A DNA stretch of 64,000 nucleotides from an uncultured Lachnospiraceae bacterium (lineage in GTDB: Bacteria > Bacillota > Clostridia > Lachnospirales > Lachnospiraceae), in NCBI GenBank assembly GCA_947624815.1, contig CANQME010000002.1:4261-68260 (forward strand), in the 5' to 3' direction. Below, piece by piece: positions 14,371-54,389 of this stretch (position 1 is its first letter; each line of letters starts with the position of its first letter). The position numbers and the translations under genes are program-made. The notes under the pieces are model-generated. The model had not been told where the DNA came from, did not search any database, and saw only the letters and a program-made list of their open reading frames with translations.

Positions 14371-15084
14371 TTATACGTTCTTGTTCACGATCCTGGTCTC
14401 ATACGCGCCGGTGGCGATATCAATGAACCGCACAAACAGAGACACCTTGTTCTCCTCGTTCAGATTCTCCCAGACCATCTGCGTAAATTCATCGATGGTT
14501 CCGGCGATCTCCACCCGCTTCGGCTCGCCCTCAAAGCTGGGCAGGGGATTTCCGTCATGCATATACGTATGGATAAAATGACCCTCTCCCGCCAACGGCC
14601 TCTCATAGGCAAACGTATACCTCTGGCAGGACTGCGGATCACCGTCCGCGCTCTTTAAGATCGACATGGCGTAATTGTAGCCGCCGCCTTCCATATGCAT
14701 GATCCCTGAGATCCGCGGGGTATAATTGGGGCCGTCCGGCTCGAACTCCCGGGACCTCAGGCACTGCTCAAAGGTCAGCTGCTTATCCATGCCCTCATAA
14801 ATGGTATCCGTCTGGTCTCCGTTGGTCACGATGGTTTTATTGCCCAGCACGCGCACCGGCGCGTAGATGATCAGGCTGGGATCCTTCAGCTTCGCCGGGT
14901 CATACGCCTGGGTACGGATTCCCTCTCCGTCCTCCACGAACACGCGGTTGCGGCTGTTCTCGCTGCGTCCCATGATGAAATACGCCGTTACCGCCTTCGT
15001 GCCGTCCGCCGACTTGCCGATGACGATCCCGCGGCCGGGATACGCATTTTCCCTCAGCTCCTTCGCCAAATCCAGTTTCTGCAT
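14371..15084 (-). CDS. purO: IMP cyclohydrolase (PurO-type)
   Basis: YPGRGIVIG, YFIMGRSENSRNR, IVTNGDQTD, FEPDGPNYTPRISG; directly upstream of purH. Confidence 0.85.
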   Translation of the reverse strand: MQKLDLAKELRENAYPGRGIVIGKSADGTKAVTAYFIMGRSENSRNRVFVEDGEGIRTQAYDPAKLKDPSLIIYAPVRVLGNKTIVTNGDQTDTIYEGMDKQLTFEQCLRSREFEPDGPNYTPRISGIMHMEGGGYNYAMSILKSADGDPQSCQRYTFAYERPLAGEGHFIHTYMHDGNPLPSFEGEPKRVEIAGTIDEFTQMVWENLNEENKVSLFVRFIDIATGAYETRIVNKNV

Positions 15085-15203
15085 CGCTTTGTCCTCCTTA
15101 TATGGTGTGATCATGTGTGTCCGGGTTCCGCGTCATTTTTACCTCGCCCCTGATCCGCCCGCAGGCCGTGCCCGGGGCGGCGCCTACAGCTGCCTCTTGC
15201 GAT

Positions 15204-15243
15204 AAAAAACCGCCTGGACACCACAAACAGAATGCCCAGGCGG
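15204..15243 (-). terminator. Riboswitch expression-platform terminator
   Basis: ACCGCCTGGGCA...TGTCCAGGCGGT followed by a T-tract; its 5' arm overlaps aptamer P3. Confidence 0.8.
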
Positions 15244-15306
15244 TCGGCTTTTCAACATGCGTGCTCCCCCGTGGTTGCCCACTGACTCCGCCAGTCGCAC
15301 GCTCTG
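15233..15306 (-). ncRNA. ZMP/ZTP (pfl) riboswitch aptamer
   Basis: Minus strand GCGTGCGACTGGCGGA...CCACGGGGGAGCACGC...GCCGACCGCCTGGGCA matches the pfl consensus; lies upstream of purO-purH. Confidence 0.92.
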
Positions 15307-15402
15307 CCATTATCATAATGGAAATCGAATTCCATTGCAAGTACTATTTGACAATTTCTTCAAATTCCCGGATGATCCGTATGTCCTTCGGACATGCTTC
15401 CG

Positions 15403-16494: not shown

Positions 16495-16640
16495 GCCATA
16501 TGCCTCCTTCTGTCCGATCGGACGTTTCATCAATCTATCAGAAATATCATACCACAGATTCCGGTTCCTCGCTACTTGTTTTGCGTAAATATATGTGGTT
16601 GCTCATTAGGGTGGAAATATTTATGCACATATTCGTGGAA

Positions 16641-17353
16641 GGGACGCAACGGGTACGCGAACGGAAGTCCCACCGTATGCGCTCATGGTTCCGGAGGGAA
16701 GAGTCTCTAAGACAAAAAAGTTCCGGTTTGGGGGCACTGTCAGATTCGCGAGAATTTCTGAAGAAATTCTCGCTCAGACTGACACTGCGTCCATGACTTG
16801 TGGTCATGGCCGCAGACCCCCAAACCGGCCCTTTTTTGCCTAAGATACTCTAACCCTCCTCCTCGAAATCGCGCATACGGTGGCACTTCCGTTCGCTGTA
16901 CTGTCGCAGGCGCTAGAGATAAAAGCAGATTGTTGCTGTTGTTTTACAGAATGCTGAGAATTAAGGCCCCTCGAAGGAATGGGGTGATTCGGATACAATA
17001 ATTCTGCCAAGAGTAATCAGCACACCACAAAGGAGCCGCTAAGCGGTTCGTCGCGCCCGCAAATAAACAGCGCGACAGGCGGGGATCGGGACACATCCTG
17101 GGCGCGATTTCACGGAGAAGGGTTAGTCTTTCTTAATGAAAAAACGACAGTTTGAGGGTCGACGCCCATGACCACAAGTCATGGGCGGAGCGGCAACCTG
17201 AGCGTGAACTCATCAAGAGTTCACGCGAATTTGCCGTTGCCCTCAAACTGACGTTTTTGAATTTAGAAAGACTTCCCTTCGGAGTCATGAGCGCACAGGA
17301 TGTGTCCCGATCCCCGCCTGTCGCGCGTACCTCCCGCGTATCTCCCGCGCATC
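16641..17353. mobile_element. Paired-hairpin element copy 1 (module A 16657-16896, module B 17070-17326); putative non-autonomous element
   Basis: Near-identical inverted copy at 31395-32260. Each module is a long interrupted stem capped by two small hairpins. Mobility is inferred from the dispersal. Confidence 0.7.
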
Positions 17354-31202: not shown

Positions 31203-31394
31203 AGCATAGCCTCCTCGTACAAACATTTCGGAGCAGTCTCCGTATATGATCATTTTACCTCAGAATGATGCGGCTGGCAAATATTTTTGTGCGTTTTTCG
31301 AGGGGATTTTTCGCTGGATTGCAGTGGGAAAGAATTGCGCATACATCGTGGGTAAGGGACATGCGAGAGATATGCGTGAAGGAGGAGAAAGACA

Positions 31395-31449
31395 GATACG
31401 TGAAGGATACGCGAAAGATTCGTGAAAGATACGCGAAAGATACGCGAGA
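31395..31449 (+). repeat. 11-bp tandem repeat (GATACGYGAAA x5) running into the module B stem
   Basis: gatacgtgaag gatacgcgaaa gattcgtgaaa gatacgcgaaa gatacgcgaga. Confidence 0.8.
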
Positions 31450-32260
31450 CAGGCAGGGGCCGGGACACATCCTGTGCGCTCATGACTCCGAAGGGAAGTC
31501 TTTCTAAATTCAAAAACGCCGGTTTGAGGGCAACGGCAAATTCGTGAGAATTTCTGAAGAAATTCTCACTCAGGTTGCCGCTCCGCCCATGACTTGTGGT
31601 CATGGGCTCCGACCCTCAAACCCGTCGTTTTTTCATTAAGAAAGACTAACCCTTCTCCGTGAAATCGCGCCCAGGATGTGTCCCGGCCCCTGCCTGTCTC
31701 GCTGTTTTTTTGCGGGCGCGACGGACCGATTATTGACTTCTTCGCGGTGCGTCGATTAACTCTATGCAAAATTTCACGCAATAAAGGACGTACGTATACC
31801 TCGTTTCTGCGTTGGTTCTTCCGAAGCTGGATGTACTTACCCATATTGTATCCGAATCACCCACTCCTTCGTTGATTCTCTCAAAACGGGTATTCCCGCC
31901 CGCAACACCCCGAATCACATCATTCCATTAAGATTTCCAGTCCATGCAAAAGCCGTTAAATCAATCAGCAATGCTCTGCTCTTTTGTCTCTAGCGCCTGC
32001 GACAGCACAGCGGGCGGAAGTCCCACCGTATGCGCGATTTCGAGGAGGAGGGTTAGAGTGTCTTAGGCAAAAAAGGGCCGGTTTGGGGGTCTGCGGCCAT
32101 GACCACAAGTCATGGACGCAGTGTCAGTCTGAGCGGGAATTTCTTCAGAAATTCCCGCGAATCTGACAGTGCCCCCAAACCGGCACTTTTTTGTCTTAGA
32201 GACTCTTCCCTCCGGAACCATGAGCGCATACGGTGGGACTTCCGCCCGCGTCCCCCTCGC
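31395..32260. mobile_element. Paired-hairpin element copy 2, inverted relative to copy 1 (module B 31444-31702, module A 32010-32249)
   Basis: Reverse-complement match to 16657-17326 with compensatory changes and a longer internal spacer. Confidence 0.7.
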
Positions 32261-32306
32261 GACTATATTCACACCCAATCCCCCCCGCGAAGACCTCCCA
32301 TTCCCT

Positions 32307-54090: not shown

Positions 54091-54293
54091 GCGCAGAGAC
54101 TCCGGCCCAGCTCAGGTGAGTTTTTCGAGCGCCCAAAAATCCTTAGTGAACAGCAATTTGCGTTATTCCGAAAAATGGACGTGTCTGAGCGAAGCGAGTT
54201 GTCCATTTTTCGGAATGCCATTAGCAAATTGCTGTGAACTTAGGATTTTCCCGCGAGAAATCCCGAACCTGAGAAGGGCCGGAGTCTCTGCGC
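54091..54293. repeat. Solo long interrupted hairpin (module C), related to modules A/B
   Basis: Stems gcgcagagactccggccc/gggccggagtctctgcgc, acagcaatttgc/gcaaattgctgt and attccgaaaaatggac/gtccatttttcggaat; tip gtgtctgagcgaagcgagtt. Confidence 0.85.
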
Positions 54294-54389
54294 GGACCTT
54301 CCGCGCTTTCGCCCAAGCGCCCGAGCCGCTCCTAAGCCCGCTCCCATGCCAACACAGCGCAGTCTCAGTTTCAGCTCAGCCGGCACTGC

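Follow-up and report, generated by a model that had tools for sequence, protein, structure and literature searches.

The paired hairpins found in this stretch of Lachnospiraceae DNA most plausibly belong to a family of non-autonomous repeats of the MITE/BIME kind that carry no genes and are restricted to one lineage, a reading to which we assign a probability of roughly 0.55. Elements and half-elements of this family have come and gone, or been replaced, at orthologous intergenic sites, and their cores have been copied between loci within a genome. Mobilization would be supplied in trans, by an enzyme not encoded beside the element.

The window, by which we mean the whole 64-kb stretch of DNA that was analyzed, comes from contig C2 of a MAG (G000; 207 contigs, 3.54 Mb) and carries two inverted copies of the element (Table 1). 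A repeat finder gave 95% complementarity between the arm at 16645-16925 and that at 31981-32261, and 87% mutual complementarity between the B-type arms of the two copies, confirming the claim of an initial annotation of this DNA that a unit made of two modules, A and B, recurs in reverse complement. Modules A and B are themselves 79% alike, in inverted orientation. The units lie where they had first been described, but their edges reach further out, to about 16624 for copy 1 and to 31336-32273 for copy 2, once the terminal leader is included. Similarity between copies ends just upstream of the terminal TGCACATATT motif on the A side of copy 1, and the 5' end of module B1 is found 17 nt past the stop of a co-oriented ABC transporter gene. 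A scan of ten ORFs at 15.9-35.5 kb of the window revealed no transposase, as had also been remarked. A ZMP/ZTP riboswitch (RF01750), scoring 63.9 bits where the gathering score is 39, occupies positions 15227-15308 on the minus strand, with the minus-strand ORF 14371-15114 downstream of it.

Table 1. Repeat-family features of the 64-kb window, with positions counted from its first nucleotide.
Feature	Position	Strand	Description
Element copy 1	16624..17352		Leader, A hairpin, spacer, B hairpin, leader
Copy 1, A-side outer leader	16624..16659	+	Terminal TGCACATATT motif, then 11-mer units ending TACGCG
Module A1	16657..16896	+	Imperfect palindrome of about 240 nt with three-way-junction tip
A1 junction arm P2	16738..16784	+	Conserved asymmetric ATTCG / CTCAG internal loop and covarying hairpin
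A1 junction arm P3	16791..16809	+	CCATGAC-TTGTG-GTCATGG; CCCTGAC...GTCAGGG in other copies
Copy 1 spacer	16897..17069		77-92% homologous to spacers at other loci of the genome
Module B1	17070..17326	-	Homologue of A in inverted orientation
Copy 1, B-side outer leader	17327..17352	-	Two exact CGCGGGAG[G/A]TACGCG units
Element copy 2	31336..32273		Inverted relative to copy 1
Copy 2, B-side outer leader	31336..31443	+	Terminal TGCGCATACAT motif and about 8 degenerate 11-mers
Module B2	31444..31702	+	
Copy 2 spacer	31703..32009		Copy 1 spacer plus extra inserted sequence
Module A2	32010..32249	-	5' end 40 nt past the stop of the co-oriented SNF2 helicase gene
Copy 2, A-side outer leader	32250..32273	-	TGTGAATATAGTCGCG...
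Lone family-D hairpin	54091..54305	-	Leader unit CGCGGAAGGTCCGCG, 3' CGCTGGGTTTTCG tail and tip-loop motif as in A/B; stem unrelated

A full element measures 0.7-1.0 kb and consists, in order, of a leader, a hairpin of about 250 bp, a spacer, a second hairpin in inverted orientation and an inverted leader. The initial annotation had taken A and B for the ends of a longer, gene-carrying element; instead, this leader-hairpin-spacer-hairpin-leader arrangement is the element itself. Terminal inverted repeats are present in the form of a TGYGCACATRGT-type leader of about 25 nt at both outer ends, made up of TGYGCACATRGT and one to eight tandem 11-mers (CGCGRRAGRTA; one copy has 13-mers). When copies are aligned together with their flanks, TGYGCACATRGT marks the point at which their similarity begins (terminus consensus from 79 copies). 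The last 11-mer of the leader continues into the hairpin foot, and the inner side of the hairpin closes with CGCTGKKTTTTCG.

The number of repeats in the leader is highly variable, with about eight 11-mers at one end of copy 2 (31362-31446 of the window) and, in contig C7 of G000 (at about 1470-1520), four exact copies of a 13-mer (TTACGCGAGACAG) repeating the opening bases of the hairpin foot. This variation points to slippage or cutting that has recurred at the CGCG foot. Foot-triplet hypervariability was also considered as the product of a special mechanism, an idea that we dropped when the variants proved to mark sub-lineages (contigs C7, C8 and C39 share one). Repetition occurs in a spacer as well: at G000:C51:13150-13300, between hairpins of families C and D, there are about four tandem copies of a unit of about 45 nt (AAAAACCAGCACAGGAACCGTATTCA...), an intra-element minisatellite. 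A B element at G000:C65:16040-16145 has had nearly all of its hairpin deleted and keeps leader, foot and tail within about 90 nt.

The second palindrome of an element often comes from a different hairpin family. Contigs C51 and C53 of G000 carry pairs of families C and D with leader and tail as in A/B, and hairpins of families X, C and D all have the same ends as the A/B elements. Judged by eye, the families seem to have short motifs in common at the tip and at corresponding internal loops (ATTCG / CTCAG), and their stems are unrelated. At one locus the copy in G014 is a B hairpin between two inverted 24-nt leaders, and sister species there have a leader, B, a spacer, an X hairpin and a leader. 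An inverted leader also lies 12-410 nt downstream of 14 of the 35 modules called as solo by the profile; each of these 14 must therefore either be paired with a hairpin from another family or have arisen by deletion. The hairpin families are exchangeable on common ends.

Whichever strand is folded, module A1 forms a single long stem with interruptions that ends in a three-way junction (-152 and -165 kcal/mol; z-scores of -14 and -16), and none of 200 shuffles was as stable. The long stem ending in a junction with two arms that had been proposed from the sequence is therefore what the fold gives, the arms being P2 and P3 of Table 1. The CCATGAC hairpin, described at that time as invariant, is so inside the window; elsewhere, however, it covaries. 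Pairing was assessed in an alignment of 74 copies and 299 columns, for which RNAalifold predicted 79 pairs. Fifty of these pairs have double changes that keep the pairing, many pairs occur as three or four Watson-Crick types, and stem cells are 95.8% Watson-Crick, compared with 25-37% when the 3' partner column was slid by 1-3 positions and 74.9% when partner letters were shuffled within columns (maximum of 76.0 in 300 shuffles). The proposal that the stems of A and B differ and still pair, with their bulges retained, is borne out by this level of pairing and by the conservation of the internal loops.

The mismatches that remain bear on the nature of the constraint. Among about 5,800 cells there were 48 G-T and 48 A-C combinations, both rarer than other mismatches, with one loop-closing T-G pair left out; a second, profile-based alignment gave 53 and 48. 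Since G-U disrupts an RNA helix far less than A-C does, this parity indicates a constraint that is equal on both strands. Two copies have, in addition, had one arm rewritten. In the copy at L042:2471-2746, the 5' side of a conserved asymmetric loop is now the exact complement of the 3' side, and in that at L065:671-944 the 3' side is now the complement of the 5' side, so that arm-to-arm conversion is seen in both directions. Based on the parity of G-T and A-C and on this rewriting, palindromy is kept at the DNA level and not as an RNA fold.

Quasipalindrome template switching is a mechanism known from mutagenesis work in E. coli. Judging from the end states of the two rewritten copies, the change of one arm to match the other would be the signature of such intramolecular template switching or of hairpin repair (quasipalindrome correction), a process that would yield compensatory changes without selection on each pair. 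A protein that binds the double strand was rejected as the cause of the covariation, because variable positions differ freely among the copies of one genome. The asymmetric internal loops persist in 72 of the 74 copies (about 97%) and across hairpin families. As they survive the homogenizing pressure, these loops are probably under selection, and they probably act as recognition features for a protein that works on extruded or single-stranded DNA. All 75 copies compared have the tip in the standard orientation relative to the stem loops, and none has the inverted (flip/flop) form.

We also examined how widely the modules are distributed. BLAST and an nhmmer profile located them at no fewer than 20 loci in G000, which include seven A/B pairs, several single modules and two with the distal part deleted; nine of the loci are at contig ends. 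The repeat is gene-less and multicopy, with the polymorphic presence described below, and to this extent the earlier reading is supported. Carriers make up 9 of the 41 genomes of the genus, with up to about 20 matches each, and modules were absent from all 16 genomes from other families of the order. When 185,579 species genomes were scanned with a 21-nt degenerate core motif, the matches were to rabbit-gut MAGs named 'uncultured Lachnospiraceae bacterium Lapin-...' and to five further genomes in unrelated phyla, one match each, which we took as chance. The leader pattern, with up to two mismatches, was not found in 400 other genera of the family; no match was returned for the leader pattern in JGI metagenome contigs, for the core-loop pattern in IMG/VR, or by blastn in distant mode against phage and plasmid collections. 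A match to a known Rfam family, which the initial annotation had named as grounds for setting its reading aside, was looked for as well, and no family matched the repeat: at gathering thresholds the only hit was the ZTP riboswitch elsewhere in the window, and a permissive E-value gave chance-level matches only. From these searches, the family appears to be restricted to a few rabbit-gut Lachnospiraceae. The sequencing runs listed as containing the stretch were all DNA contig runs from one rabbit-gut sample, with no RNA run among them. In these runs the repeat core stood at 5-40x the depth of its flanks, and one internal-deletion joint was present. No excised, empty or inverted form was found in the contigs of that sample, rare forms being beyond the reach of contigs.

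Fixed presence at orthologous sites had likewise been held to speak against the proposal, and sites are in fact empty, half-filled or differently filled in sister species. At the site of copy 1, between a lactamase_B gene and the ABC transporter gene, G004 has a short leader-like remnant only, and the intergenic region of G001 and G055 is short and free of modules. A single X hairpin stands there in G050; G009 combines that hairpin with a B half-element inserted tail to tail, and in G000 the site holds A and B, differently placed. The site of copy 2, between the PNPOx and SNF2 genes, is empty in G050, G009 and G023, holds D and A in G004 (a family-D hairpin taking the place of B) and holds B and A in G000. 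No clean insertion junction could be defined at either of these sites. Similarly, no target-site duplication was recognizable at two loci compared with empty sites, where the flanks are only about 80% identical between species. The 'empty' site of G004 looks like a deletion footprint rather than a naive site. Short CGCG-rich, leader-like remnants such as CGCGCGCTTCCCCGCG were observed at the orthologous spot of sites that have no hairpin, both at L071 (G001:C54), beside the stop of the ABC gene, and at L070 1280-1300 (G004); they look like the footprints of lost elements. A search for an uninterrupted palindromic target, with a leader directly facing an inverted leader, gave chance matches only.

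Copying between loci is seen most directly in contigs C7 and C8 of G000, where a 682-bp block is 99.3% identical and the flanks are unrelated. The block spans the last A-side 11-mer to the B foot, and its identity stops inside the leaders, so that gene conversion between resident copies could explain it as well as transposition does. Spacers, too, are homologous across different loci. Many sites are common to several species and most copies are therefore old. The 14 kb between the two copies of the window encode ABC transporters, MarR, a rhamnosidase, a sugar isomerase and kinase, and the PNPOx protein. The gene order and orientation of this block are unchanged in G050, where copy 2 is absent, which identifies the block as ancestral chromosome and not cargo; a composite transposon or an inversion of the block was rejected on the strength of this synteny.

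Gene context was taken from GC3-aware gene calls, which are correct for the four cases in the window. Thirty-two of 44 single modules start at most 120 nt past the stop of a gene that has the same orientation, and 10 are oppositely directed, although the loci are partly orthologous across species and these counts are not independent. Paired elements have one module in sense and the other in antisense orientation. At the ABC transporter gene, the B module of G000 occupies the place of an ordinary terminator hairpin present in G004, G050 and G009. The 3' tail, CGCTGKKTTTTCG, is T-rich and begins 3-4 nt past the stem; it is weak in the A copies of G000. A scan for consensus terminators, which counts no more than 20 pairs and needs a loop of 3-8 nt, found no match, and the consensus scan returned one promoter-like site, as chance predicts. 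The placement fits a terminator or 3'-end role and an insertion bias tied to the direction of transcription or replication alike. Given its location immediately after co-oriented genes and its T-rich tail, the element is probably also an incidental transcription terminator or 3' end structure.

No recurrent gene neighbors the elements, the only large cluster consisting of ORFs that run through the repeat itself. A long version enclosing a recombinase gene would have fitted the initial reading, and the only long one found (L030:2930-5264, in G050:C8) holds none: its hairpins enclose 2.3 kb of low-GC DNA encoding an EamA-family transporter, a tRNA_bind-domain protein and a 159-aa protein without a Pfam match that looks membrane-embedded. 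This insert indicates that foreign DNA can sit in, or enter, the spacer. Y1_Tnp (PF01797) was not found in six of the nine carriers (G000, G009, G004, G014, G023 and G054; MAGs that are 80-93% complete), and rve is absent from all nine. G000 lacks DDE_Tnp_1, Transposase_mut and DDE_3, has no IS4, IS256 or IS630 transposase, no IS110 match above the cut-off, and no other transposon-like pair or IS with the same termini. Its sole TnpB-like frame (C51:276-482) is truncated and about 12 kb from an element, and its 17 tyrosine and 9 serine recombinase matches are not linked to the element. One serine and two tyrosine recombinase genes were observed at G000:C13:35278-39712, the module with which that contig ends (42447-42513) being 3-7 kb away; these genes may mark an integrated element beside the repeat, or their position may be a coincidence. 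Because the carriers are incomplete MAGs, and MAGs often lose insertion sequences, the absence of a transposase is weak evidence.

The element is akin to the BIME/REPIN, ERIC, Correia, BOX and bcr1 repeats and is a member of none of them. Like the BIMEs and REPINs of proteobacteria, it is intergenic, multicopy, gene-less and placed after genes, it has two palindromic units inverted around a spacer, and pairing is kept between copies. However, BIME/REP units measure 20-40 nt, compared with 240-280 nt and a branched, three-way-junction tip here; no RAYT/Y1 gene was found in most carriers (6 of 9), unlike the REP/REPIN-RAYT systems; and the terminal inverted leaders with 11-mer arrays and the host, Lachnospiraceae rather than proteobacteria, also set the element apart. 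With ERIC/IRU, Correia (CREE/NEMIS), the pneumococcal BOX/RUP and bcr1 of B. cereus it shares imperfect palindromes in transcribed intergenic DNA, polymorphic presence at sites, internal-deletion variants and a probable incidental influence on termination or the ends of mRNAs. It differs from these in having two long palindromes per element instead of one, and families that are exchangeable on common ends. Further, in comparison with structured MITEs, no TSD and no parent IS were found, and the covariation is strictly Watson-Crick with no excess of G-U. PATEs and IS200-IS605 ends resemble it in being gene-less and hairpin-bearing with no obvious target duplication, but here hairpins and leaders are inverted and not on the same strand, TnpA (Y1) was not found in 6 of 9 carriers, the junctions have no common target word and the hairpins are ten times larger. 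The units, at 240-280 nt, are indeed much larger than REPs and IS200/IS605 ends, as the initial annotation had stated. Its comparison with parvoviral T-shaped ITRs holds for shape, in that a long stem with two small arms stands inverted at both ends of the unit, but not for flip/flop isomers (0 of 75) or replicon context: there are at least 20 chromosomal copies instead of replicon ends, no viral or plasmid match was found, no Rep gene was noticed in the vicinity, and the enclosed DNA is a spacer of 0.1-0.5 kb, once three non-Rep genes. Eukaryotic foldback (FB) elements likewise have long inverted terminal parts and short tandem repeats in variable number, and are often non-coding; they belong to another domain of life, and each terminal part here is itself a palindrome.

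Several other explanations must be weighed against a MITE/BIME-like repeat. An enzyme acting on single-stranded DNA, whether a HUH nickase, a tyrosine recombinase or another, might recognize the hairpin in its folded, three-way-junction form and mobilize the element by way of a single-stranded intermediate, the hairpins then serving as folded ssDNA ends in the transposition reaction, as the initial annotation had supposed. Such an enzyme would account for covariation that is Watson-Crick only, for asymmetric loops shared by families with unrelated stems, and for single modules that are oriented with the upstream gene and thereby, in Firmicutes, usually with replication. It is also in keeping with the lack of a visible target duplication, as in insertion of the IS200/IS605 type, and with half-elements apparently gained singly (G050 compared with G009). 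We nevertheless regard it as rather unlikely, given six of nine carriers without a Y1 HUH gene, hairpins so inverted that each strand presents the 'module' face of only one (unlike IS200/IS605 ends), no flip/flop isomer in 75 copies, no conserved short target word, and 17 tyrosine and 9 serine recombinase matches in G000 of which none is linked to an element. A bolder version, which is doubtful, is that of a new class of prokaryotic mobile element, in which an enzyme neither Y1-HUH nor classical DDE would read the three-way-junction hairpins through their asymmetric loops and cut at the CGCG foot units, the hairpins being exchangeable 'heads' on common ends. An RNA role would instead make the module a structured 3' UTR or terminator, similar to ERIC, Correia or bcr1, that stabilizes or ends the upstream transcript and whose fold is selected as RNA. 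The very stable fold, the T-rich 3' tail CGCTGKKTTTTCG, the start of 32 among 44 single modules no more than 120 nt past the stop codon of a gene in the same orientation, and the direct replacement by the G000 B module of the ABC terminator hairpin of G004, G050 and G009 all favor it. It is unlikely, though, because G-T is no commoner than A-C (48 of each, both below other mismatches) and one module of every pair is antisense to the operon, and there is neither a conserved promoter, a terminator-like site in the consensus scan, nor an Rfam match. Such a role may nonetheless exist, as a by-product.

The repeats could also be structural sites of the host, forming cruciforms or binding proteins as do the BIMEs bound by IHF and gyrase, and spread and homogenized by recombination only, with no transposition. 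Many sites orthologous across species, cores homogenized within a genome beside leaders that are locus-specific, and the failure to find a transposase are what this would predict, but host sites of this kind would hardly be limited to a single genus and to 9 of its 41 genomes, nor would different hairpin families occupy one site in sister species or truly empty sites exist; we consider this explanation distinctly improbable. Finally, A and B form an inverted repeat interrupted by a spacer, and the two copies of the window form another across 14 kb, as in an invertible switch (inverton) or in units bounding a composite transposon or invertible segment of 14 kb. This possibility is largely refuted and has very little probability left, since G050 shares the gene order and orientation of the 14-kb block, lacks copy 2 and has a single hairpin at the site of copy 1, and no inverted joint was found in the rabbit-gut sample contigs. 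Recombination within hairpins should, moreover, leave chimeric modules that do not pair, of which there were none among the aligned copies, and the tail-to-tail arrangement with locus-independent spacers also argues against it.

Small gene-less repeats shape bacterial genomes by breaking assemblies, ending transcripts and seeding rearrangements, and those of gut Firmicutes are almost undescribed. The present family is unusually large and ordered: each element has a pair of branched 250-bp palindromes, several hairpin families with unrelated stems share the same ends, and the asymmetric loops are conserved. Nine contigs of G000 end inside the repeat, and recognizing it would aid the assembly and annotation of rabbit-gut genomes. 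The family also offers what appears to be a clean natural example of palindromes kept perfect by arm-to-arm correction at the DNA level and not by selection on RNA, and such upkeep is a caution for the discovery of RNAs from covariation. If a dedicated enzyme does read the hairpins, it would represent a new DNA-recognition activity, and possibly one of use in genome engineering.
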